From positions 1,833,211-1,897,210 of the forward strand of contig OY762213.1 in NCBI GenBank assembly GCA_963665385.1: 64,000 nucleotides of DNA. Reading direction: 5' to 3'. The notes under the pieces are model-generated. The model was not told where the DNA came from. It made no database searches and saw nothing but the letters and a program-made list of their open reading frames with translations. This DNA comes from Dehalococcoidia bacterium (lineage in GTDB: Bacteria > Chloroflexota > Dehalococcoidia > UBA6926). How positions within the stretch are numbered: position 1 is the stretch's first letter; each line of letters opens with the position of its first letter. This document shows, in pieces, positions 7,320 through 64,000 of the stretch. Position numbers and translations under genes: made by a program.

Positions 7320-8333
7320 ATGACTTCGGGCCTGTCTGTTGACCTTCCGAGCGGCAAAAAAGGCCGTGTGCTTTCCGGCGCGCGGCCGACCGGTCGTTTG
7401 CATCTGGGAAACTACTTTGGCGCGCTGAAAAACTGGGTGTCCCTGCAGGACGATTACGACTGCTTCTATTTCGTCGCGGACGTACACGCCCTCACGACGG
7501 TCGAAGACACGGTGGGCCTCAAGCAAAACACCCGAGAGATGGTGCTGGATTGGCTTGCGGCTGGACTTGATCCCGATCGCAGCACCCTGTTCATCCAATC
7601 GCGCGTCCCGGAGGTGCTGGAGCTTCACGCGTACTTGAGCATGGTGACGCCGATGGGCTCGCTGCAGCGCGTCCCAAGTTTCAAGGAGCAGTTCCGGGCG
7701 CGGGCCGACAGCATGAATTACGGCCTCGTCGGCTATCCCGTTCTCCAGACGGCGGACATCATCATCTATCTGGCAAACAAGGTTCCCGTGGGCGTGGATC
7801 AGGTTCCGCACGTGGAACTCTCGCGCGAGATTGTGCGGCGGTTTAACGGGCAATTTGGCGAGGTCTTTCCGGAACCGGATGCCCTCCTGTCGGAAACGCC
7901 GAGCATCAAGGGGACGGACGGCGACCAGAAGATGTCCAAGAGCCTGGACAACCACATTGAGTTGGCCGCAACACCGGAAGAGACGGCGCAACGTGTCATG
8001 TCTATGGTGACCGATCCGCAGCGCGCTCGACGAACCGACCCTGGCCGCCCCTGGATCTGCAACGTCTATGCGCTCCACCAGATATTTTCCAATGAAGACT
8101 ATACAAAGACGGTGTATGACCAGTGCACGACGGCGGCCATTGGCTGCGTGGACGACAAGCGCGCGCTTGCGGACGCGATAAACGAGAATCTCCAAGCGTT
8201 TCGGGAGCGGCGAGCCGAACTCGCGACACAACCCAACCTCGTCGAGGATGTACTCGTGGCAGGCACGGAACGGGCGCGGGCCGTTGCCATCCAGACAATA
8301 GAAGAGGTGCGAGATCGTATCGGTTTCTTTTAG
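7320..8333 (+). CDS. trpS: Tryptophan--tRNA ligase
   Basis: 337 aa, class I aaRS. A HIGH-like motif lies in GARPTGRLHLGNYFGA and there is a KMSKS motif (KMSKSLDNHIEL). Confidence 0.92.
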   Translation: MTSGLSVDLPSGKKGRVLSGARPTGRLHLGNYFGALKNWVSLQDDYDCFYFVADVHALTTVEDTVGLKQNTREMVLDWLAAGLDPDRSTLFIQSRVPEVLELHAYLSMVTPMGSLQRVPSFKEQFRARADSMNYGLVGYPVLQTADIIIYLANKVPVGVDQVPHVELSREIVRRFNGQFGEVFPEPDALLSETPSIKGTDGDQKMSKSLDNHIELAATPEETAQRVMSMVTDPQRARRTDPGRPWICNVYALHQIFSNEDYTKTVYDQCTTAAIGCVDDKRALADAINENLQAFRERRAELATQPNLVEDVLVAGTERARAVAIQTIEEVRDRIGFF

Positions 8334-8357: not shown

Positions 8358-9161
8358 GTGACCACATCTCCTGATGGGCTTCCTCTCGCCGCTACCGGCC
8401 GCACAGCGCAGTCTGTCGCACTGGAGGCGGCGCAATACGCGGGCAAGGTCCATCTCCAATATTTCCGCGGCGACCATCTCGGCACCCGGGAAAAACGGCA
8501 CGCGGATGTCGTGACAGATGTCGATGTCTCTATTGAGCGAGAGCTAAGACAGCTGCTGATGAGAGAGTTCCCGTCCGCGGGGTTTCTTGGCGAGGAGACC
8601 GGCGAATCTGAAGGCGACTCTGAATACACGTGGACGGTGGACCCAATCGACGGCACAGCGAATTTCGTGCGCGGTATCCCACACTTCGCAACAACGATCG
8701 CCCTGCTGAAGAACGACACGCCGGTGCTCGGCATCACGTATGACGCGATACGTAAAGACACCTTCTACGCCGCTGCAGGACGGGGTCTCACACTGAATGG
8801 TGTGCCGATGAAGCCAAATTACGCCACGAGTATCGAGGAGGCGAATCTCGGATTCGATATTGGGCCGGAGGAGGATCTAAACGTCCGCGCGTTCGACATT
8901 ATCAGGTCGCTCCTGCCGATGTACCGCGCGCGGCTCATGGGTTCAGGGGCGCTCGGCTTCGCCTATGCGGCAGCCGGAATAATCGATCTGTATTTCCATT
9001 TGGCGCTTAAGCCTTGGGACGTGGCGGCGGGTTTACTGTTCATCCAGGAGACGGACGCGGACGCCGTGTCAATCGACTTTGACGGCGCTCCGGCCACACC
9101 GTGGAGCGGCAGCTACCTCGTCGGCGCACGAAATCTACTGGAGCGCGTGCGCACTGCGTAA
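8358..9161 (+). CDS. Inositol monophosphatase family protein (SuhB/ImpA-like)
   Basis: 267 aa with the IMPase motifs EETGES...WTVDPIDGTANFVRGIPHFATTIAL and the WDVAAG motif. Confidence 0.88.
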   Translation: MTTSPDGLPLAATGRTAQSVALEAAQYAGKVHLQYFRGDHLGTREKRHADVVTDVDVSIERELRQLLMREFPSAGFLGEETGESEGDSEYTWTVDPIDGTANFVRGIPHFATTIALLKNDTPVLGITYDAIRKDTFYAAAGRGLTLNGVPMKPNYATSIEEANLGFDIGPEEDLNVRAFDIIRSLLPMYRARLMGSGALGFAYAAAGIIDLYFHLALKPWDVAAGLLFIQETDADAVSIDFDGAPATPWSGSYLVGARNLLERVRTA

Positions 9162-9195
9162 GGGTTAGCCAAGTCAGATTTCTCGTCGAAGTATC

Positions 9196-9245
9196 TGAAA
9201 AAAACATGGCGGGCGGCTCATATGAGCCGCCCGCCTCTTTGTTCC
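9196..9245. terminator. Bidirectional intrinsic terminator between the convergent IMPase and ACAD genes
   Basis: A near-perfect hairpin GGCGGGCGGCTCA-TA-TGAGCCGCCCGCC at 9208-9235. It is flanked by an A-tract at 9198-9205 and a T-rich TCTTTGTT at 9236-9243. Confidence 0.6.
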
Positions 9246-9278
9246 CAGTGGAACCGGCGATGTATCTACAGTTTTTGC

Positions 9279-10403
9279 CTAGATATCCATCGCCTGTGCG
9301 ACGCGCTCGCGGTGGTAGTCGCCATCACCAAAGGAGACCTCCCATGCCTTGAGGCGTCGCGTGAACAGCTGCAGGTCGTGCTCCTGTGTGAAGCCAATGG
9401 CTCCGTGGCACTGGTGCGCCGTGGCCGCCACACGCTGCGCGGAATCACTGACCCACGCCTTCGCAGAGGAGACCTCGAGGTCGGAGGGCAGGCCCTCGCC
9501 CAGACGCCAGATTGCCTGGTACGTGATGAAGCGGGAGCCATCAACGTCCGTCGCCATGTTCGCGCAATAGTGCTGTATAGCCTGGAACGAGCCGATCGGC
9601 CGACCGAATTGCACGCGGTTCTTCACGTACTCAACGGTCATGTCCAGGACCTCTTGTAGCGCGCCGACCATCTGCGTGCAACGAAGCGCCGCGCCCTTCT
9701 GGAGCAACAGCCGCAGGACGGACCAGCCGTTGCCGGCCTCGCCGAGCACGTTGCCACCGGGAACGGAGACGTTGTTGAACGTCACTTCGCACTGGTTGTC
9801 CGTGGCGATGGTCTTGAGTTTATCGACGGAAACACCGTCGCTCTGAGCATCCACCAACAGCAGTGTGATGCCATCTTCGCCGGAGCCGCCGGTGCGGGCA
9901 GCGACCAGCAGGTAGTCGGCAGCATGAGCGTTTTCGACGAACATCTTTGTGCCATTCAGCGTGTAGCCATCACCCGATGCCGAAGCTTCCAGGTTGATGC
10001 CATTGGCATCGAGGCGAGAATACGGCTCAAGGATGGCCGTGGTCGCGATTAGGTCGCCCGCCGCGATTCGAGGCAGGAACTCCGCCTTCTGCGCGTCCGA
10101 ACCGGCATCAAGGATAGCGACGGTTGTGAGCGCAGTGTTGAAGAACGGGCCTGGCATGACACCATGGCCAACCTCTTCCAAGAGGATACCCAGATCAACC
10201 AGATTCTGGCCGGTGCCGCCGTGTTCCTCGGGAACAATCAGGCCGAGCCATCCAACCTGCGCGATCTTCTGCCACATATCGGCAGTGAATCCGCGGTCAT
10301 CCTCTTCCATGTCCCGGACGAACGTGCGCGGTGTCTCTTGCTCAATGAACTCTCGCGCCATCGACCGTAGCATTTCCTGGTCTTCAGTTAGTCCCAGATC
10401 CAT
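9279..10403 (-). CDS. Acyl-CoA dehydrogenase (canonical family member)
   Basis: About 374 aa from MDLGLTEDQEMLRSMAREF, with a GGAGGGGG RBS upstream. ACAD N-terminal, middle and C-terminal domains are all recognisable. The ORF track's upstream Met is probably spurious. Confidence 0.88.
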   Translation of the reverse strand: MDLGLTEDQEMLRSMAREFIEQETPRTFVRDMEEDDRGFTADMWQKIAQVGWLGLIVPEEHGGTGQNLVDLGILLEEVGHGVMPGPFFNTALTTVAILDAGSDAQKAEFLPRIAAGDLIATTAILEPYSRLDANGINLEASASGDGYTLNGTKMFVENAHAADYLLVAARTGGSGEDGITLLLVDAQSDGVSVDKLKTIATDNQCEVTFNNVSVPGGNVLGEAGNGWSVLRLLLQKGAALRCTQMVGALQEVLDMTVEYVKNRVQFGRPIGSFQAIQHYCANMATDVDGSRFITYQAIWRLGEGLPSDLEVSSAKAWVSDSAQRVAATAHQCHGAIGFTQEHDLQLFTRRLKAWEVSFGDGDYHRERVAQAMDI

Positions 10404-10481: not shown

Positions 10482-11699
10482 TTAGCGCGGGAGGCCAAGG
10501 CCTCGCTGCGCAATGATGTTCTTCTGGATCTCTCGCGTGCCGCCACCGATGCTGGTACCGATGCTCTGCCAACCGCGAGCGGGCAGGAAGCCTTCATCCG
10601 GCAGCGGGAAGCGGTCGCCGTTGCCCGGCAACAGGTTCCCGTAGCCGTCCATAATCTGCGAGAGGCCTCGGTAGATGTGCTGGAAAAGCTCATCACCGAA
10701 GAACTTGACCATCGAGGATTCCTTCTGCGGGATCATGCCCTCGCTCTGCATCCAGCCGACGCGGTAGCAGAGGGAGCGCAGCGTCTCCACGCGGACACGC
10801 CACTCGGCGAGGCGATGGCGGATTTCTGCACGAGCGATGGGCGTATCGCCGCCCTCGTCGCGCACCATGCCACACCAGTCAGTAAATTGTTCCAGTGTTC
10901 GGAGCAGCTGAGCCGGGCGGCCGATGTTGGAGCGCTCAAACGAGAGCGTGGTCATTGCGGCGTACCACCCGCGATTCTCTTCACCGATGATATTGTTCGC
11001 CGGTACGCGCCAGTTCTCCATGAACAGCTCATCCCAGCGGTGATTATTCGTGCCGTCCTTAATACCGCGAACCTGGATGCCCGGCATGTAGTTGCCGTCC
11101 TCATCCTTAAGCCGCGCCAGCAGGTACGTTATGCCCCGGTGCTTGGGCGCATCCGGGTCGGTTCGCACGAGGATGTGAATCCAATCGTTTCGATAAGTGC
11201 CCCAGATCTTTTGTCCGCTGACGACATAGTCGTCGCCATCACGGACGGCGCGAGTCTTGAGTCCGGCGAGGTCGGAACCGGCATCCGGCTCGGAGAACCC
11301 TTGCGAGAACTCGATGTCCGCATTCGCGATCTGTGGCAGGAATAGCTGCTTCTGCCATTCCTGTCCATGCACCATGAGCACGGGAGCGACAAGGCCGCCT
11401 CCCAGTGCTGCCGGCGCGTCGTGGTAGGACATAACCTCGCGATACGCAAGCTGCTTCTCAATAGAAGCGTCCTGGCCGCCGTACTCACTCGGCCAGTGCA
11501 TTGTGTACCAGCCCCTATTGACCAGCTTCTTGGCGAATTGGCGTGCAACCTCGTGACCGGCTTCGCGCTCTTCCTCGCTGCCGTGCCACCCGGCGAGGCC
11601 GCCTGTCAGGTCGTAACCGGGATTCTGCCATTCGCTCTTGACGAATTCTTCAGCCTCATCTCGGACGGCCTGCGCCTCTGCCGAAAATCGAAAGTCCAC
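10482..11699 (-). CDS. Acyl-CoA dehydrogenase-fold protein, MDFRF...IIAQRGLGLPR paralog (subfamily A)
   Basis: 405 aa. Starts MDFRFSAEAQ behind an AGGAGG RBS. The ACAD-like core has KESSMVKFFGDE and the protein ends GGGTREIQKNIIAQRGLGLPR. Confidence 0.85.
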   Translation of the reverse strand: MDFRFSAEAQAVRDEAEEFVKSEWQNPGYDLTGGLAGWHGSEEEREAGHEVARQFAKKLVNRGWYTMHWPSEYGGQDASIEKQLAYREVMSYHDAPAALGGGLVAPVLMVHGQEWQKQLFLPQIANADIEFSQGFSEPDAGSDLAGLKTRAVRDGDDYVVSGQKIWGTYRNDWIHILVRTDPDAPKHRGITYLLARLKDEDGNYMPGIQVRGIKDGTNNHRWDELFMENWRVPANNIIGEENRGWYAAMTTLSFERSNIGRPAQLLRTLEQFTDWCGMVRDEGGDTPIARAEIRHRLAEWRVRVETLRSLCYRVGWMQSEGMIPQKESSMVKFFGDELFQHIYRGLSQIMDGYGNLLPGNGDRFPLPDEGFLPARGWQSIGTSIGGGTREIQKNIIAQRGLGLPR

Positions 11700-24017: not shown

Positions 24018-25970
24018 CTATTCCTCCAGCGATCCGTCGGCGCAGAACGGAGCGCCAATTTGCCCATACGGGGGTGTGCTGCTGTAGGAAGAAAAAATCT
24101 GGCTCCTTATAGAGTCCGCTACGCATCCGGTGAGCGAGTTGCCGCCGAGTCTGAGGCGGCGCACGTAGGACATTCCGCTCAGGTCGGGTATGGGGCCGGT
24201 GAACTGATTATTCTGGAGGGTGACGACAATATAGGGCATGTCGCCGAACCAGTCGGGTATGTCGCCAGTCAGCTGGTTGTTTTCCAGAGCGACGGTATGC
24301 ACGAGGTTGGCGTTCTTGAGTTCGTCGGGGATCTTCCCGGTCAACCGGTTGTTCTGCAGGAAAAGACCGCCCAGTGCCTTGATGTTGCCCAACTCAGGAG
24401 GAATACTCCCGCTGAATTTGTTATCTGAAAGATGGAAGTGCTCGGTGTTCAGATTGCCGTATTCCGGAGGGATCGGACCGGTGAACTGGTTGTTGTTCAG
24501 GTGGATCCCCCACGCCTTGGTCAGGTTGCCCAGGCTGGCCGGAACACTTCCCGTCAGCCGGTTGTAGGACACGGACAGGTCAAAGAGGTTCGTCAGGTTG
24601 CCGATTTCGGACGGCACTCCTCCGGTCATGCCGGTTCTTTCGAGATTCAGCGTTACAAGCTCGGTCAGATTGCCTAGCACTGCGGGAATCGTGCCAGTTA
24701 GATTGTCATGGCCAAGTTCCAGGTTGACCACGCGTCGCGGATCACCACCAATTGTGACGCCGTGCCAAGCTCCGAGGGCAGTCTCCGCGTTCCACGTTGC
24801 CAGAGCGTTGCCCGCCGGGTTCAGCACATCCCTGGCCGCCCACAGGGCCCCGCAGTCGGCAACTAGTTCAGGCTTGTCGTCCGGGTTGCGGATGATAACG
24901 CCGTTGTCACACGGGGTCGTGATCTGGATTCGTATGGACTTTCCCGGCCCGCAGTCATCGCCCTCACAGGCATACACCTTTGCCACCCACTTGCCGAAGT
25001 GCGGCACCAGGACGCTGGCACTTGATGCCTTTACGGTTACACCCTCGTTCAGCTGCGTGCCGGGCGCATCCTCACGCCAACGCACCAGGTAGGAGTCCGC
25101 TCCATCTACATCGTCCCAGTCCAGCGACACGTCCAGTGAGCCGACCTCGGTACTTGCCTGCAATGCAGAGGGCTTGGCCGGCGCCAGGTCTACCTGGAAC
25201 ACTTTCAGTTCGCTCTCTCCGCAGTTGTCACCGTCACAAGCCTTCACGCTCACGGTCCACGTGCCGTCACGATCGACCGTAAAAGCCGCACTCGAGGACC
25301 GGACATCCTTCTGGCCGTGAAGCCGTATGTCCCCAATTTTTCGCCAATAGACCGAGTACCGGGTTGCGCCGCCTACGTCGTCCCAGTCCAACGTCACGTC
25401 TAGCGAGGCGGGACTGGTAGTGACCTGGAGCCCTGTGGGTTTGGCCGGGACTGGCTCCAGGATAGGTGTAGGTATCAGTAAAGGTAGCCTTGATATTGGC
25501 TTGGGAGGAGGCTCGGGCGTGGGTGCAGGCGTGGCTACGGGTGTCGATTCGGGCGCTGAGCGAACCGCGATGCGCTTGGCGGCGGGTCTTCCGCAGCCCG
25601 CGTCATTGCAAGCTTGGACCCGCACCACCCATTCGCCGTAATCGTCCACGGCAACTGAGGCCGCGGAAGATCTTATGGTGATCCCTTCGTTCAGCCGGTT
25701 GCCCGGTCCTGCCACCCGCCAGCGCACTCGATATTCCGATGCCCCGTCAACGTCGTTCCAGTCCACCGACACATTCAGCGAGCCGACCGTAGCAGTATCC
25801 TGCAACCCTGTCGGCCTGGCCGGAGGTTGTATTCCTTCCTCAGCCCCGGCGGGATTGTCACTCCAGATCAAGGCCGCGGCGGCGAAAAGGACTAGTAGCA
25901 GCGCGGCAAGGCAATACGGCAGCCATCGGCGCATCAACCTGATGCGTGCGTATGAGACGGGACGACTCAC
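24018..25970 (-). CDS. Secreted/membrane-anchored protein with three fibronectin-III-like repeats and a plant-type leucine-rich-repeat (LRR) domain
   Basis: An N-terminal hydrophobic helix. Three roughly 90-aa repeats (PAKPTGLQ...SLDV(T/S)(L/V)DWDDV(D/G)GA..Y.V.WR...). Then 8-9 tandem 24-aa LRRs of consensus LxxLxLxxNxLTGxIPxxLGNL, and a C-terminal Cys pair. Confidence 0.8.
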   Translation of the reverse strand: MSRPVSYARIRLMRRWLPYCLAALLLVLFAAAALIWSDNPAGAEEGIQPPARPTGLQDTATVGSLNVSVDWNDVDGASEYRVRWRVAGPGNRLNEGITIRSSAASVAVDDYGEWVVRVQACNDAGCGRPAAKRIAVRSAPESTPVATPAPTPEPPPKPISRLPLLIPTPILEPVPAKPTGLQVTTSPASLDVTLDWDDVGGATRYSVYWRKIGDIRLHGQKDVRSSSAAFTVDRDGTWTVSVKACDGDNCGESELKVFQVDLAPAKPSALQASTEVGSLDVSLDWDDVDGADSYLVRWREDAPGTQLNEGVTVKASSASVLVPHFGKWVAKVYACEGDDCGPGKSIRIQITTPCDNGVIIRNPDDKPELVADCGALWAARDVLNPAGNALATWNAETALGAWHGVTIGGDPRRVVNLELGHDNLTGTIPAVLGNLTELVTLNLERTGMTGGVPSEIGNLTNLFDLSVSYNRLTGSVPASLGNLTKAWGIHLNNNQFTGPIPPEYGNLNTEHFHLSDNKFSGSIPPELGNIKALGGLFLQNNRLTGKIPDELKNANLVHTVALENNQLTGDIPDWFGDMPYIVVTLQNNQFTGPIPDLSGMSYVRRLRLGGNSLTGCVADSIRSQIFSSYSSTPPYGQIGAPFCADGSLEE

Positions 25971-58654: not shown

Positions 58655-58737
58655 TGAGCCTCCGTATTACTGGTAAGTGGTTGACTAAGGAATCGTGGCG
58701 TTTGAAGCAGTCAATGAGATTAGATTGGGGACTCTAC

Positions 58738-59097
58738 CTACTCCACGTATGACAACATGCGGTGGACAAATGCGTGGACGAGTGGGCGATCTGCTTCGAC
58801 CTCAAAGTCCTCCATTTCGTCGTGGTAGAAGTTCTTGTGGAATTTCTCTGCCGCCGCAAAGCCGCCCGTGAAGAACACGTCGTCAGCTTCGCCTGCCACT
58901 AGCTGGACCACGTTCTTCATGGCGCGGTGGGAGCGGCATTCCCACCCACGTTGATCCGCCACCGCCATCACCGCGTGTGTGGCGGCGCCCCACAGCTTCT
59001 CGGACGCCTGCAGATGGTCTCCCGCAGCGAACTCCTCATCTGACACGGAGAGGAATTCCAGCGCGGTCTGTGAATGATCAGCCTGATTCATGACCAC
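58738..59097 (-). CDS. Hypothetical small helical protein (PaREP1/HEPN-like?)
   Basis: ORF only, 119 aa, acidic. It resembles PaREP1-type small helical proteins only weakly. Confidence 0.4.
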   Translation of the reverse strand: MVMNQADHSQTALEFLSVSDEEFAAGDHLQASEKLWGAATHAVMAVADQRGWECRSHRAMKNVVQLVAGEADDVFFTGGFAAAEKFHKNFYHDEMEDFEVEADRPLVHAFVHRMLSYVE

Positions 59098-59134
59098 AGT
59101 CTACCGCGCTATTGTCGGCCAGGCGTTTTAGACG

Positions 59135-59323
59135 TTACTTTGCCGCTTTGGCGGCGGTGCGGAGGCAGCGTGTGCACATGCGGACCTGCGTGCGCGTTCC
59201 ATTCTCGTCGTACTGCGAGATCTTCTGCACGTTGACGTTCCAGCGACGCCGCGTCTTGCGATGCGAGTGGCTGACGTTGTTTCCGAATTGCGGGCCTTTG
59301 CCGCAGACTTGACACTTTGCCAT
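59135..59323 (-). CDS. rpmB: 50S ribosomal protein L28
   Basis: 62 aa from the internal Met. MAKCQVCGKGPQFGNNVSHSHRKTRRRWNVNVQK...RVCTRCL matches L28. The ORF-track N-terminal extension is rejected. Confidence 0.85.
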   Translation of the reverse strand: MAKCQVCGKGPQFGNNVSHSHRKTRRRWNVNVQKISQYDENGTRTQVRMCTRCLRTAAKAAK

Positions 59324-59486
59324 GATGTTTCGTTCAATTCCGCTCGTTGGTGTGTAGTCGAACCGGCTGATTTCGCCTTGGGGCAAAGGGCCGGCTGCAT
59401 AGCTGCCGTACAGCGTCGTATGCTACCAGAGTCGGAGCATCTGGGCAACGATGCCTGGAGTACGGAACACTGTAGGAGGACTACCA

Positions 59487-61112
59487 ATGACTAGCGGCAA
59501 CAGTGCTGGCACTCTGGACGGGCAGGGGTTGCTTGATGCGTTGGCGGGCGGCGCGGAATGGCTGCAGGCAAACGTCGACGCAGTAAACGCGCTCAACGTG
59601 TATCCCGTGCCGGACGGCGACACCGGTACCAACATGATGCTCACGCTTCAGACTGCGCTCCGTGACGCGCAGGAGAACCCCGGCGACGGCACAGTCGGCG
59701 CGATGTCCGCCGTCATCGGACAGGGCGCGCTGCGCGGCGCCCGCGGCAACAGCGGCGTCATCCTTTCCCAGTATTTGAAGGGCTTCGCACAGGGTCTCGA
59801 CGGTGTCGGCACTATGGACGGCCCGGCGCTCGCACGAGGTTTACAGTCCGCCTCTGAAGCCGCATACGGCGCCATGAGCAAGCCCGTCGAGGGCACCATG
59901 TTGACCGTCGGGCGCGAGGCAGGGGAGGCGGCAAACGCCAGCGGCTCAGCAGACGTCATCGAAACCCTGCGCGCTGCCGCGAACGAGGCGGACGCATCAA
60001 CTGCGAGGACGCCGGAGCTGCTGCCCGTGCTAGCGAGCGCGGGCGTCGTTGATTCCGGCGGCCAGGGCATCGCCGTTATCCTTCGGGGCGCGCTCTCGCG
60101 ATTGACCGGGGAGGACACGGGCCCTGCACTGGAAGCGCCGACCATTGCGTCTATCGACCCAAGCCTGTACGCAGGAGAGGCCGGTGACGCGTGGGGTTAC
60201 TGCACCGAATTCGTGCTGATGGAGCCCACATCCAACATGGACACCGTCCGCGCGACGATGGCCCTGTTCGGCGAATCGGAGTCCATTGTCGAGGGTGATG
60301 GGCTGATCCGCGTTCACCTGCACACGTCTGAGCCGGAGGTTGTGCTGACCGAGGCTGAGGGGATGGGACGGCTTGAGCAAGTATCCATCCGTGACATGGA
60401 TCAGCAACACCAACAATTCCTCGCCGGACATGGGGAAGACATCGAGGACGTCGCCTGCGGCGTCGTGTCCGTCGCGTCCGGCCCCGGGTTCGTCAAGATC
60501 ATGCGCGGCCTTGGCGCCGGCTCAATCATCTGGGGCGGGCAATCTATGAATCCGTCCGCGGAAGAGATTGCGGAGGCCGTCGAATCCATCCCCGCGCCGG
60601 ACATCATCATCCTGCCCAATAACAAGAACATCGCAGCGACGGCTGAGATCTCCCGTGACCTCATCCACACCAAGACCGTCACGGTGCTACCAACGGAGTC
60701 AGTGCAGCAGGGCATCGCCGCTCTCCTGACCTACACGGCCACCGTCTCAGTGCAGGACAACATGGAGGGCATGCAGGGAGCAGTTGACGAACTCCGGTGG
60801 GCGGAAGTCACCTTTGCCGTGCGCAGCGGCCAGGCCGGCGATGTGACATATGCAGCGGAACAGCCAATCGGCCTGCTGGAGGGCGATTTAGTCGTTTCGG
60901 GTGAGACACCCGAGTCGGTGGCGCAGTCACTGGTTGAGCGCATCGCGCCGGAGGGTGAAATGATCGTCACGCTGTACTACGGCGCGGGGATCACGGAGGA
61001 GCAAGCTGAGTCCGCTGCCGAGGCCATTAGCGCCGTCTGCCCGAACGACGTAGAGGTGGAAATCCAGAGCGGCGGCCAACCGCTGTATCCGTACCTCATC
61101 TCTGTCGAATAG
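59487..61112 (+). CDS. DAK2-domain fusion protein (YloV/FakA-like), divergent from rpmB
   Basis: 541 aa from MTSGNS, with a GGAGGA RBS. The DAK2 N-terminus has LNVYPVPDGDTGTNMMLTL and the C-terminal domain is YloV-like. The rpmB/yloV neighbourhood is conserved in Firmicutes and others. Confidence 0.85.
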   Translation: MTSGNSAGTLDGQGLLDALAGGAEWLQANVDAVNALNVYPVPDGDTGTNMMLTLQTALRDAQENPGDGTVGAMSAVIGQGALRGARGNSGVILSQYLKGFAQGLDGVGTMDGPALARGLQSASEAAYGAMSKPVEGTMLTVGREAGEAANASGSADVIETLRAAANEADASTARTPELLPVLASAGVVDSGGQGIAVILRGALSRLTGEDTGPALEAPTIASIDPSLYAGEAGDAWGYCTEFVLMEPTSNMDTVRATMALFGESESIVEGDGLIRVHLHTSEPEVVLTEAEGMGRLEQVSIRDMDQQHQQFLAGHGEDIEDVACGVVSVASGPGFVKIMRGLGAGSIIWGGQSMNPSAEEIAEAVESIPAPDIIILPNNKNIAATAEISRDLIHTKTVTVLPTESVQQGIAALLTYTATVSVQDNMEGMQGAVDELRWAEVTFAVRSGQAGDVTYAAEQPIGLLEGDLVVSGETPESVAQSLVERIAPEGEMIVTLYYGAGITEEQAESAAEAISAVCPNDVEVEIQSGGQPLYPYLISVE

Positions 61113-61128
61113 GCGCGCGCCGCTTGAC
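61105..61128. repeat. Left copy of a perfect 24-bp direct repeat TCGAATAGGCGCGCGCCGCTTGAC (contains the palindrome GGCGCGCGCC)
   Basis: Identical to 62609-62632. It overlaps the TAG stop of the upstream gene. Confidence 0.9.
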
Positions 61129-61252
61129 CTATTCCGGTCGTTGAACGCGGTGTTCTCGATGAGTAAACGTGGATTTTCACACGTTCGCATGATTTGACGC
61201 TCCATCAAAACGTCTGTATTCTCACGTCAGACATACGAAAGGAGATGCTGTT

Positions 61253-62521
61253 ATGCAGATAAACACAGGTGTTGATTTGAGAAAGGTTGAGGGAACAGTT
61301 GAGGATGCCAGGCAACGGGCTATCAGTCTGGCAACGGACTCACATCGTGAAGTACTTCCTGTACGGGTCTTTACCCAGGGAGGACGCCTGATGCTGGACG
61401 GCGTGTTGCCCATTCGCGTACTAACGAGGGTACTTGCCCGCAATGCCGCTCCCAAGGGTTCCCCGGCGGCCAAGGCACTGGACCATAACAATCGACCAGA
61501 GGATCCAGCGCACAGGAAGGCAATCGAGAGATATTTGCGGCGAGCCACCGAGAAGAACGATCGCTATCTGATACCGGCCCTCACCCTGAATTGCACGCGG
61601 GACGTGTCGGTGTTCGTACCCGCCGACAGCTACACACCCATAACAGGATATGCGGTACTTCCAGACGAGGCCGCCATTTACATAACGGATGGACAACACA
61701 GATTCCTTGCCATTAAGAACGTGGCAGACGATCTGCGGGGCACGTCGGCAGGTGAACGGTTCGTGAACGATAGTGTGCCAGTCATGATGACAATTGAAAG
61801 CGACCAAGAGCAGGTCCACCAAGATTTCGCTGATGCTGGCAGAACCAAACCGTTGCCAACCTCTCTTCTGGCAGTCTACGACGTTCGTCAGCCGGGGAAC
61901 CGCGCAGTCATGAAGCTTTCAAACGAAGTAGTACTGCTCAAAAGCAGAGTGGACGCTACCTCAAGCACACTCAGCATCAATTCTCCATACGTATTCCTGA
62001 TCAATCAAGTTCGCCAGTTCGTCAAGAGCAGTTTGACAGGGAAGGCCACCACTGGGGAGGCTGCCTTTGGTACTCAAGCTGAGAGTGTGCTGGGAAACCC
62101 GGCAGCCTTTGATCGGTGGACTACTTCGCGCATAGCTTTTCTAGACGTCGCCACCAAATTGATTCCTGATTGGAGCGAGATCTGCGGTCTCTCGGCGCCG
62201 GGCGGAGAAGATGCCCCAGAAGTGCTCAGCAAAATGAAGACAATCCGGGCTAGGAAGAATGTCAGCATCGCCGCCGCGTTCCTTGTTGCCCTGGGGTTGG
62301 TGTCTTATGAAGTGCTGACGGACGCCACGAGCGGCGCAGTGGATTACAGCCAAATGTGTCAAGAGTTGACGCAAAAGCTCCAACCTCTTGAGGAAGTCAA
62401 CTGGGATCGATCCGCAGAGATTTGGCAAGGGAATCTAGTTGTGGACGATAGGATTCGCACGCAGACTCCTGCCATCAATGAGGCCGCTAAGAAACTGAAG
62501 GCTCTTCTGAGCCTGACGTAG
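61253..62521 (+). CDS. DGQHR-domain protein, DndB-like (ParB/Srx-fold), stand-alone
   Basis: 422 aa with YITDGQHRFLAIKNV, an exact DGQHR motif. Upstream HRKAIERYLRR matches the DndB/DGQHR family layout. GC is lower than the flanks and there are no dndACDE or ssp genes nearby. Confidence 0.75.
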   Translation: MQINTGVDLRKVEGTVEDARQRAISLATDSHREVLPVRVFTQGGRLMLDGVLPIRVLTRVLARNAAPKGSPAAKALDHNNRPEDPAHRKAIERYLRRATEKNDRYLIPALTLNCTRDVSVFVPADSYTPITGYAVLPDEAAIYITDGQHRFLAIKNVADDLRGTSAGERFVNDSVPVMMTIESDQEQVHQDFADAGRTKPLPTSLLAVYDVRQPGNRAVMKLSNEVVLLKSRVDATSSTLSINSPYVFLINQVRQFVKSSLTGKATTGEAAFGTQAESVLGNPAAFDRWTTSRIAFLDVATKLIPDWSEICGLSAPGGEDAPEVLSKMKTIRARKNVSIAAAFLVALGLVSYEVLTDATSGAVDYSQMCQELTQKLQPLEEVNWDRSAEIWQGNLVVDDRIRTQTPAINEAAKKLKALLSLT

Positions 62522-62541
62522 CCTTTCTACCGGTTGCGCCT

Positions 62542-62590
62542 CTGGCCAAGGGTGCCACTACCAGTGTGAACGCGTGGTACCCTTGGCCGC
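62542..62590 (+). other. Strong hairpin downstream of the DGQHR gene (terminator-like or recombination site)
   Basis: The stem is GGCCAAGGGTGCCAC with a 19-nt loop, then GTGGTACCCTTGGCC (one mismatch). No T-tract follows. Confidence 0.5.
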
Positions 62591-62608
62591 AGCTTGATAA
62601 GAACGCCT

Positions 62609-62632
62609 TCGAATAGGCGCGCGCCGCTTGAC
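62609..62632. repeat. Right copy of the 24-bp direct repeat
   Basis: Identical to 61105-61128. Confidence 0.9.
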
Positions 62633-62721
62633 AGTGGTCAGCGTTGCGCTCACGCTCACGCCAGTATTGGGGAGGGCGTGGGCCACTCGAATTGTGGCGC
62701 CCACGGATTAGCGGGCGATAA

Positions 62722-64000
62722 ATGGCGGTTGAAACGCGGTCGTCACTCGGAATACTGAATCCCCGTCGGGTGTTCTACGGGTGGTGGATCGTTCTGTCGG
62801 GTTTCCTGCTGATGCTGTTCTCCACGGGTGTCGGATTCTACGGCTTCTCGGCATTTGTGAATCCCATTGCGGACTCCATTGCGGGCGGCAGCCGTGCGAT
62901 CGTTGCGACGGCGGTGTCAATCCAGCGCGCCGAGTCCGGAATCCTGGGGCCGATCATGGGATTCCTCGTGGATCGTGTGGGGCCGCGTATCATCCTCATC
63001 GGCGGATTCGTCATCGGCGGGCTGGGATTTATCCTCGTGGCGCTGACACAGAATGTCGTCCAGTTCTACGCGGCCTATTTCTTCCTGGCGCTTGGGCTAG
63101 GCGCAGGTTCGTTCCTGATTGTCAGTACGGCGGTCACAAACTGGTTCAGCCGCATGCGTGGCCGGGCGCTGGGTTTCTTGTTCCTCGGTCCGGGGTTTGC
63201 GGGCTTCCTGGTGCTGGGCATCGTCGAACTGATCGACATGTTCGGTTGGCGATACACGTTGGCCGGAATCGGCGTGGCGATGTGGATCATCTGCATCCCG
63301 TTGGCGCTGATCATGCGGCGGGCTCCGGAGGCATACGGGCAACGCCCGGACGGTGATCCGCCGGTTGAAGGATCATCGAGCGCGCCGGTTGCCCTGACAG
63401 GAGGGGGGGTGCCGGTTTCAGAGGCATCTCTGATTGGAATCGGCAGTGTTCTGCGAAGTGCCAGCTATTACCAGTACATATCTGCGTTCGGTCTGCAGCA
63501 GATGGGATTCTCTGCGCTGGTCATCTTCCAGATTCCGGCACTGCAGACCTTCGGACTTTCTGCAACCGAGGCGGGGGTTGCCGTGCTTATCTGGACAGTT
63601 GGCGGGCTTCCCGGGCGTCTCGCCTCCGGGTTCCTGGCAGACAAATTCGATAAGCGGCTGGTGCTGGCGGCGGCGTTCATCATGCAGCTGATCGGCTTGT
63701 TCTTCTTCTTGACGACGACGAATCTGAGCGGCGCAATGCTGTACGGCGTAACGCATGGCATCGGGTGGGGTATGACAACACCGTCCCGACTGGCATTGCA
63801 AGGTGAGCTGTGGGGGCGGGCGATATTTGGTCGGCTGATGGGGATTCAGACCGGGACCTCCGCTATCGGGTCCATCATCTCGCCGATATTCGTCGGGTGG
63901 TGGTTCGATACGTTCGACGAATACAAGACTCCGATCATGTTGCTATTCCTGCCCATGTTCCTCTGCATCGTGTTGGTGCTGACAATTAGGCGGCCCCAGC
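62722..64000 (+). CDS. MFS transporter, 3' end beyond the window (paralog of 38584..39891)
   Basis: The frame is open from ATG 62722 to the end of the window. MAVETRSSLGILNPRRVFYGWWIVLSGFLLML... has multiple TM helices. It is not in the ORF track because no stop falls in the window. Confidence 0.8.
   Translation, partial: MAVETRSSLGILNPRRVFYGWWIVLSGFLLMLFSTGVGFYGFSAFVNPIADSIAGGSRAIVATAVSIQRAESGILGPIMGFLVDRVGPRIILIGGFVIGGLGFILVALTQNVVQFYAAYFFLALGLGAGSFLIVSTAVTNWFSRMRGRALGFLFLGPGFAGFLVLGIVELIDMFGWRYTLAGIGVAMWIICIPLALIMRRAPEAYGQRPDGDPPVEGSSSAPVALTGGGVPVSEASLIGIGSVLRSASYYQYISAFGLQQMGFSALVIFQIPALQTFGLSATEAGVAVLIWTVGGLPGRLASGFLADKFDKRLVLAAAFIMQLIGLFFFLTTTNLSGAMLYGVTHGIGWGMTTPSRLALQGELWGRAIFGRLMGIQTGTSAIGSIISPIFVGWWFDTFDEYKTPIMLLFLPMFLCIVLVLTIRRPQ

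Follow-up and report, generated by a model that had tools for sequence, protein, structure and literature searches.

The 64,000-nucleotide (nt) stretch of Dehalococcoidia DNA analysed here (contig OY762213.1, positions 1,833,211 to 1,897,210; hereafter the window) carries a 1.5-kb segment that encodes a single protein with a DGQHR motif, lies between a fakA-like (yloV-type) gene and a major facilitator superfamily (MFS) transporter gene, and is bounded by perfect 24-bp direct repeats. This segment is a genuine, precise insertion, since related genomes carry the corresponding empty site. We read it, with a probability of roughly 0.5, as a recently acquired, non-autonomous, self-repressed single-gene cassette with a 24-bp att-like core, which would have been moved by a recombinase acting in trans. 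The features of the region are listed below; ORF stands for open reading frame, GC for G+C fraction, GC3 for the same at third codon positions, and Srx for sulfiredoxin.

59487 to 61112, forward strand: Dak2/FakA-like (yloV-type) gene, matching Pfam Dak2, FakA-like_M and FakA-like_C
61105 to 61128, forward strand: left 24-bp direct repeat (attL-type core), present as a single copy at empty sites
61129 to 62608, forward strand: inserted segment of 1,480 bp, missing in four related genomes by blastn breakpoints, with GC and GC3 below those of the flanks
61167 to 61184, forward strand: operator-like box O1, ACGTGGATTTTCACACGT (ACGTG-N8-CACGT), directly upstream of the -35 hexamer
61194 to 61222, forward strand: predicted sigma-70-like promoter, TTGACG-17 nt-TATTCT, within the cassette
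61210 to 61227, forward strand: operator-like box O2, ACGTCTGTATTCTCACGT, with one mismatch to ACGTG-N8-CACGT, overlapping the -10 hexamer
61237 to 61244, forward strand: ribosome-binding site GAAAGGAG, by sequence reading
61253 to 62521, forward strand: DndB-family/DGQHR-domain protein of 422 amino acids, with a ParB/Srx-fold N-domain and a helical C-domain
62544 to 62588, forward strand: strong hairpin 3' of the ORF, with 15-bp arms and a 15-nt loop (fold z = -3.7)
62609 to 62632, forward strand: right 24-bp direct repeat (attR-type core)
62722 to 63999, forward strand: MFS transporter gene (Pfam MFS_1), continuing past the window end

The 24-mer TCGAATAGGCGCGCGCCGCTTGAC has two exact copies in the window, and no third copy is found there with up to three mismatches allowed (shuffles matching: 0 of 100). 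The adjoining bases differ (G or T before, C or A after), which fixes the length of the repeat at exactly 24 nt, and the 10-bp palindrome GGCGCGCGCC forms its exact centre (7+10+7). The TAG stop codon of the fakA-like gene (61110 to 61112) and the last 8 nt of that gene fall inside the left repeat, and 90 nt separate the right repeat from the start of the MFS gene at 62722.

Among 185,579 species, each represented by one genome, an exact-match scan finds the 24-mer in two other genomes, once in each: a Dehalococcoidia metagenome-assembled genome (MAG; L003) and the Chloroflexota MAG APA_bin_32 (L004), which, to judge by its bin name alone, may come from a sponge. Window positions 59133 to 61128 and 62609 to 64000 align to both by blastn at 93-97% identity, and what the two alignments share is precisely the 24-mer; the fakA stop, one 24-mer and the MFS gene are hence contiguous in L003 and L004. 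Two further relatives, L067 and L068, which were reached via near-identical FakA proteins, have the empty site with the same breakpoints. The fakA-like orthologues in all four genomes are 98-99% identical. The tally is therefore four empty alleles and one filled, and the filled allele differs by a precise insertion of 1,504 bp (1,480 bp plus the duplicated 24-mer). The single 24-mer of L068 carries one substitution. That the two window copies are identical despite this polymorphism of the site, together with the atypical codon composition described below, argues for a recent gain rather than four losses.

A 124-nt leader, the ORF and an 87-nt trailer make up the whole 1,480 bp, in which neither a further gene nor a piece of one is found. 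GC is 0.51-0.58 within the cassette and 0.60-0.67 outside it, and the GC3 of the ORF is 0.586, compared with 0.70-0.79 in ten neighbouring genes. The hairpin downstream of the ORF has no T-run and hence is not a canonical intrinsic terminator; it may mark the transcript end or be related to recombination, both of which are candidate roles. No Rfam family matches the cassette.

An earlier note on this DNA, made from the letters alone, had described much of this arrangement, and its description holds: the 24-mer occurs exactly twice and contains a 10-bp palindrome; the left copy overlaps the stop codon of a yloV-like gene and the right copy precedes an MFS gene, as the Pfam matches confirm; a single 422-residue ORF with DGQHR and HRKAIERYLRR lies between the copies; GC is lower than in both flanks; a strong hairpin follows; and the cassette encodes neither integrase nor transposase. 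Its proposal that a single gene was inserted precisely between two housekeeping genes with a 24-bp duplication is borne out by the empty alleles in four related genomes. The possibility it had raised of a common genome-wide repeat does not apply. We reject a dispersed repeat: the window has two copies, each related genome has one, and neither the 24-mer in the JGI metagenome collection nor its central 20-mer in IMG/VR gives a match.

The DGQHR gene is the only sizeable forward ORF between the repeats and contains YITDGQHRFLAI as well as HRKAIERYLRR. Its product matches the Pfam DndB profile PF14072 with 171.8 bits (cut-off 29.1) over residues 35-421, corresponding to profile positions 1-337 of 338. 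The general DGQHR model TIGR03187 is matched above its cut-off (93.2 versus 58.85 bits), whereas the score for the DndB equivalog TIGR03233 is far below (59.4 versus 328). The DpdB model NF041060 gives 17.9 bits against a cut-off of 300, and a DpdA/DpdC context is also lacking. In PADLOC-DB 2.0, the only matches are DndB (71.5 bits) and a weak, fragmentary one to DpdB (E 4.8e-4). The N-domain has the ParB/Srx fold, and for the helical C-terminal half no close solved relative was found. Among 31 homologues, D146, G147, H149 and R150 never vary, and conservation of Q148 is 90% or more; the pair Q42 and R45 is likewise invariant, and besides DGQHR (146-150) the motifs QVHQDFADA and NQVRQFVK are invariant or almost so. 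Judged by these profile scores, the protein is a member of the catalogued, uncharacterised stand-alone DGQHR family, and is neither DndB proper nor DpdB. The earlier note had left the choice between TIGR03233 and TIGR03187 to a profile search, together with a check of the ParB fold; the protein passes TIGR03187, fails the DndB equivalog and has the fold. Its term "undescribed system" was overstated, because TIGR03187 and PF14072 already list this family, as stand-alone DGQHR proteins that are uncharacterised.

Comparison with known systems places the cassette protein near several groups. Like DndB (TIGR03233; DptB/DndB in Salmonella), it matches PF14072 over its full length, carries the DGQHR motif in a ParB/Srx-fold N-domain, and has duplicate palindromic ACG...CGT boxes in its own promoter region, one of which overlaps the core promoter. 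However, it is only ~27% identical to annotated DndB (59 versus 328 bits), it is solitary with its own promoter and without adjacent dndCDE or dndA, as are the homologue loci examined, and the spacing of its boxes is N12 instead of N10. The stand-alone DGQHR proteins (TIGR03187), a label that NCBI annotation applies across many genomes and to temperate phages, are the family to which it belongs, and a SAR202 homologue is already named DGQHR domain-containing protein. Unlike that family as catalogued, the present clade has a defined operator and promoter architecture, and one copy is a fresh repeat-bounded insertion; we did not find either feature described in the available papers that mention DGQHR. 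DpdB (7-deazaguanine DNA modification) and the DUF262/GmrS-type NTPase domains of SspE, BrxU and GmrSD likewise combine the ParB/Srx fold with a nucleotide-binding DGQ(H/Q)R motif, and all are tied to DNA modification or defence.

Operator-like boxes in the leader are conserved among homologues. O1 is the sole exact ACGTG-N8-CACGT match in the 64 kb, and O1 and O2 are the best two of six matches with at most one mismatch. The remaining four one-mismatch matches are at chance level, and a window-wide regulon for this operator is rejected. A GTCTG..CAGAC palindrome that the earlier note had pointed out in the leader overlaps what is better described as the second ACG-N12-CGT box, at 61210-61227. 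A box is kept at about -80 to -100 upstream of homologues, and in L001, L005, L007 and L008 it is followed by TTGAC-type -35 and -10 hexamers. We counted boxes upstream of the gene at 46 loci (45 homologue loci and the window), a non-redundant set of 10.1 kb. ACG-N12-CGT occurs 33 times, or 3.27 per kb, versus 0.24 per kb in the remaining DNA of these loci, an enrichment of ~14-fold; none of the other spacings from N6 to N18 exceeds 0.7 per kb in the upstream regions. The consensus is aaACGTG-N8-CACGTtt. The distance between O1 and O2 is 43 bp, as it is in L007, L034 and L044, and it is 21 bp in L018 and L021; these two spacings suggest binding on one helix face.

This conserved combination of promoter and operators points first of all to self-repression of the DndB type. 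DndB of Salmonella represses its own operon via two TACG-N10-CGTA boxes in the promoter (PMC4507180). DndB is described as modulated by ATP (cited in PMC10853773), and a DndB-like protein binds both ATP and GTP (bioRxiv 10.1101/2025.10.10.680097). By analogy, and from the arrangement of the leader, it is rather likely that the cassette is a self-contained expression unit whose protein binds both boxes as a dimer and represses itself.

Homologues of the protein are numerous, and those at 50-76% identity are solitary and found in unrelated contexts. A word-indexed search yields more than 120 clusters at 47-76% identity, mostly 418-440 amino acids long and all with PF14072 alone. A hidden Markov model search of 1.84 billion representatives gives 791 matches at E <= 1e-3 and 118 at E <= 1e-30, and the latter level delimits a clade of ~118 clusters (50% identity level) of ~420-440 amino acids, mostly from uncultivated Chloroflexota-type assemblies. 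We surveyed the contexts of nine close homologues (L001/L002, L005/L006, L007, L008, L056, L057, L058 and the L059 group). The gene lies 3' of a Fic gene in L001/L002, where the region is variable and also holds Macro, TIR and PaREP1 genes; 3' of an MNT-HepT pair in L005/L006; between lytB and CoA-transferase genes in L007; among the TraG, TrwB and TrbL genes of a conjugative element in L008; and next to assorted metabolic genes in L056, L057, L058 and L059. There are no dnd, ssp or dpd neighbours at these nine contexts, and no dnd-type domains in 20 other annotated ORFs of the window. At all 11 homologue loci measured, the DGQHR gene is below its flanks in GC. The closest homologue (76% amino acid identity) seems to reside in a related genome, with a FakA protein 89% identical, at a different locus; DNA similarity to it covers the coding sequence alone, and the non-coding ends are not shared. 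Phage and plasmid collections contain relatives at 29% identity or less only, and a PHROGs search matched one functionally unannotated family. Solitary occurrence, low GC, variable loci and one copy in a conjugative element point to a clade that travels as accessory DNA.

The same characteristics suit a "conflict" gene of accessory nature more than they suit a housekeeping regulator. Within such a role, the candidates that fit better are defence against invaders and the establishment or anti-defence of mobile DNA; we hold defence to be a tentative assignment, doubtful on present signs, and a merely selfish regulator is also a candidate.

We propose the following course of events for the cassette. 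Insertion occurred exactly at the 24-bp site that overlaps the fakA-like stop codon, and this site is now duplicated on both sides, as the filled and empty alleles attest. The exchange itself may have been conservative, site-specific (Campbell-type) recombination between the 24-bp core on a 1,504-bp circle and the identical chromosomal core, a step that we judge somewhat short of an even chance. The recombinase would be encoded elsewhere and would most likely be of the tyrosine type, supplied by a helper element or by the host. The predicted circle junction reads ...GATAAGAACGCCT-TCGAATAGGCGCGCGCCGCTTGAC-CTATTCCGGTCG... (AACGCCT-24mer-CTATTCC). Once in place, the gene would be expressed from its own promoter, which is bracketed by the two 18-bp palindromic boxes (ACG-N12-CGT), with the encoded protein as a presumed dimeric autorepressor, and ATP or GTP at the DGQHR pocket of the ParB/Srx-fold domain may modulate DNA binding.

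Repeats of such length that lie over the 3' end of a gene and keep its stop codon are typical core sites of integrases. The size of the att-like core and its overlap with the 3' end, the stop being retained, are accordingly the outcome expected when a tyrosine recombinase carries out Campbell-type integration. Both the reconstructed attP and attL have an inverted repeat of 7 bp across the core, GAATAGG/CCTATTC with a 14-nt spacer, which is marginal in strength (16 of 300 shuffles are equally good). A trace of a similar junction exists in a distant lineage. In L005/L006, whose DGQHR protein is 65% identical, a relic of the FakA C-terminus (IQSGDQQLYPYL versus IQSGGQPLYPYL) lies upstream of the gene at the same distance as in the window, at 7825-7869 (IQSGDQQLYPYLSDV), with no fakA gene nearby; an ATTCCC-N8-GGGAAT hairpin directly precedes it. 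With an E-value of 1.4e-4, this is the sole such match among 55 loci, and no relic is found at ten further loci. The relic implies that the junction between a fakA 3' end and a DGQHR gene arose or persisted in a second, distant lineage, and hints at a target preference. The earlier note had called the insertion site-specific, and this one precise event and the relic of a distant homologue agree with that; nothing beyond these two speaks for it.

Among known elements, the cassette resembles cis-mobilizable elements (CIMEs), Xer-dependent integrative mobile elements (IMEX) and pdif modules in that a small cargo lies between direct repeats of core size without a recombinase of its own. As in CIMEs and other att-flanked elements lacking an integrase, the site is the 3' end of a conserved gene and empty sites are precise; the marks of such integrated elements, a core repeat at either end and an exact empty site that has a single core, are both found here. 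In contrast to CIMEs, no cognate integrase, integrative and conjugative element or second cargo was found for the cassette, and the record consists of one event, one gene and 1.5 kb. By inspection, the 24-mer core is also unlike dif consensus sequences. An integron cassette is rejected, since the hairpin at 62544-62588 has no RYYYAAC/GTTRRRY boxes, the boundaries are not GTT and there is no integrase among the neighbours.

Several observations weigh against the proposed trans-mobilized, self-repressed cassette. Neither the cassette nor any of the 12 genes between 50.2 kb and the end of the window encodes a recombinase, and the ten large annotated ORFs at 16.2-48.6 kb do not encode one either; the neighbours of the cassette in the window are housekeeping genes, and none of them is a partner gene of a PADLOC-DB 2.0 defence system. 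No parent element bearing attP and no second cargo at the 24-mer was found among GTDB representatives or JGI metagenomes, nor in IMG/VR with the central 20-mer. The empty attB does not have the inverted arms of the reconstructed attP. Direct repeats around the gene do not exceed chance at any of 13 other homologue loci, which means that the cassette with its bounding repeats does not recur as a mobile unit, and the absence of repeats at two other variable slots (described below) indicates that insertion with repeat formation is not a general mode in these genomes. As to self-repression, the DndB that serves as the analogue for operator binding is ~27% identical, and its boxes are spaced by N10 instead of N12. 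As to the mobilization in trans that the earlier note had suggested, no recombinase, attP-bearing parent element or circular form was found, and 13 homologue loci are without repeats.

Other origins of the insertion have to be set against the proposed integration in trans. The cassette might be the remnant of a larger integrase-bearing island that entered at the 24-bp core and then lost its interior by deletion, leaving the DGQHR gene and both att sites. Direct repeats of ~24 bp at the 3' end of a gene are a signature of integrase-borne islands, and the cassette is without any mobility gene, but its 1,480 bp are fully explained by leader, intact ORF and trailer with no gene fragments, and none of the four relatives has a larger element here. 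The relic in L005 has a matching junction (fakA 3' end, ~130-145 nt, DGQHR gene), so in an island the gene would have to adjoin attL in the parent too. We consider this remnant unlikely, while placing it at the head of the alternatives. Ranked just after it is the action in trans of a transposase or casposase-like enzyme, which would make staggered cuts 24 bp apart, symmetric about the GGCGCGCGCC dyad, and join a linear cassette whose gaps are then filled. The absence of terminal inverted repeats (aligned end to end, the termini reach a score of 23 at best, below the shuffle maximum of 26) speaks against such an enzyme, as do a duplication far beyond the usual 2-15 bp, the single insertion seen with 13 other homologue loci lacking duplications, and the lack of a cas1 or transposase gene nearby among the annotated window ORFs. 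In its favour, the 24-mer is centred exactly on the palindrome (7+10+7), which is expected of a symmetric dimer, there is no extended att-like homology past the 24 nt, and long duplications are made by Cas1-type integrases and by some IS1634-group elements. A DDE transposon, a miniature inverted-repeat transposable element or a mobile insertion cassette was rejected as a candidate: inverted terminal repeats do not rise above shuffles, and the duplication is 24 bp, not 2-15.

Host homologous recombination alone, either as allelic replacement via the fakA and MFS flanks or as a RecA single crossover over the 24 bp, follows in rank and is similarly improbable. With 95-97% identity among strains, the flanks offer ample homology for exchange of alleles; a slot between argG and rpmB, 2 kb upstream, holds three alternative cargos without repeats and shows that islets are actively replaced; and the fakA-DGQHR junction is present in a distant lineage. 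Such exchange leaves the first origin of the 24-bp duplication unexplained, there is no second filled strain among five, and 24 bp lies at the lower limit for RecA-dependent exchange. Vertical inheritance of a gene that is ancestral at this locus, with loss in the relatives by deletion between the repeats, appears quite improbable. Recombination between direct repeats would yield exactly the empty sites seen, and with the L005 relic the adjacency of fakA and DGQHR is not unique to the filled strain, yet four empty alleles stand against one filled, the copies are perfectly identical at a site that is polymorphic between strains, the GC3 of 0.586 versus 0.70-0.79 is strongly atypical, and the closest homologue (76% amino acid identity) appears at a different locus in a related genome. 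It is very improbable that the gene is an autonomous "homing" element whose DndB-like protein would be both autorepressor and inserting nuclease or recombinase, cutting 24 bp apart around the palindrome; if true, this would explain why the family is always alone with a promoter, sits at unrelated loci and has no recombinase nearby. An assembly artefact, in which a foreign fragment was misthreaded into the contig at a shared 24-mer, is the least credible explanation of all. The source contig appears to be metagenome-derived, as the identical protein is listed from a 1.99-Mb NCBI/ENA contig alone, and the composition of the cassette differs from that of its flanks, but a false path would still need reads that join the fragment to the 24-mer on both sides, so that a repeat-flanked unit would exist somewhere, and the breakpoints are clean to the base with the fakA stop codon intact.

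DndB-family proteins have so far been understood only as regulators inside phosphorothioation operons. The present data point to a clade of ~118 clusters that lives alone with its own promoter and a pair of 18-bp palindromic operators, and that moves horizontally as accessory DNA. New here are the filled and empty alleles of a single gene as a natural experiment, the defined operator architecture of a solitary DndB-like clade, and the evidence of its accessory travel. The protein, its two boxes and a nucleotide make up a testable model for the role of a ParB/Srx-fold nucleoside triphosphate switch that controls only itself. A single gene without a recombinase, flanked by a 24-bp duplication and seen as one filled and four empty alleles, is a clean natural before-and-after pair, and the event could reveal the enzyme that moves minimal cassettes in uncultivated, sponge-associated Chloroflexota. 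If self-repression is all that the protein does, the cassette amounts to an unremarkable accessory gene whose regulatory signature is tidy.

In the five related strains, the intergenic slot between argG and rpmB is a hot spot of replacement (window 58655-59133; L003 2768-3866; L067 3653-4648; L068 3658-4302). It holds a PaREP1 (HEPN-like) gene in the window (ORF 58738-59097, minus strand) and in L004, a membrane protein of 214-215 amino acids in L003 and L068, and a protein with an Mrr_N domain in L067. No direct repeats are found at its boundaries in the window/L003 pair. A second variable slot distinguishes the co-occurring strains L001 and L002: a 4.3-kb indel with a Macro-domain gene, an Nmad2 gene and a gene for 594 amino acids (L001 13345-17688 versus L002 13364-13366) lies 2 kb downstream of the DGQHR gene and has no target duplication. 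Further cargo swaps close to it exchange Fic for a short ORF, and TIR for DUF4268.

Some observations concern other DGQHR genes. In L001, 37 nt at 11522-11558, within an 80-residue ORF (11378-11620), share 73% identity with the part of the neighbouring gene that encodes the DGQHR motif (AIYITDGQHRFL versus AHYITNEEDDFL); a second DGQHR gene may have decayed to leave this stretch, with no tblastn support at E <= 0.01. Four independent contigs (L062-L065) that encode an identical DGQHR protein (P0027) all start exactly 408 nt upstream of the gene, at a point that corresponds to position 4593 of L059, which suggests an assembly-graph branch and hence a population polymorphism or a repeat boundary. 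The short contigs L009 and L010 were considered as circular or repeat-ended molecules and rejected, being merely fragments of L008.

Distant DGQHR proteins (28-31% identity, N-terminal half only) are encoded by the IMG/VR viral contigs L054 and L055 (6001-6730), and others by Salmonella SPN1S-like and Klebsiella temperate phages. The Stutzerimonas stutzeri plasmid NZ_CP073106.1 (L066) encodes at 8452-10086 a protein of 544 amino acids that is annotated "DNA sulfur modification protein DndB". This gene is solitary, with no dndCDE, and lies ~1 kb downstream of a DNA cytosine methyltransferase gene and near replication and partition genes; matches to it are common on Pseudomonas plasmids.

The start of the fakA-like gene is placed at Met13 (59487) and not at the longest-ORF start (59451), as homologues of 541 amino acids suggest. 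Elsewhere in the window, positions 24018-25970 (minus strand) encode a 650-residue protein with leucine-rich repeats, an fn3 domain and a ChitinaseA_N domain. It is a eukaryote-like repeat protein, a type frequently reported in sponge symbionts.

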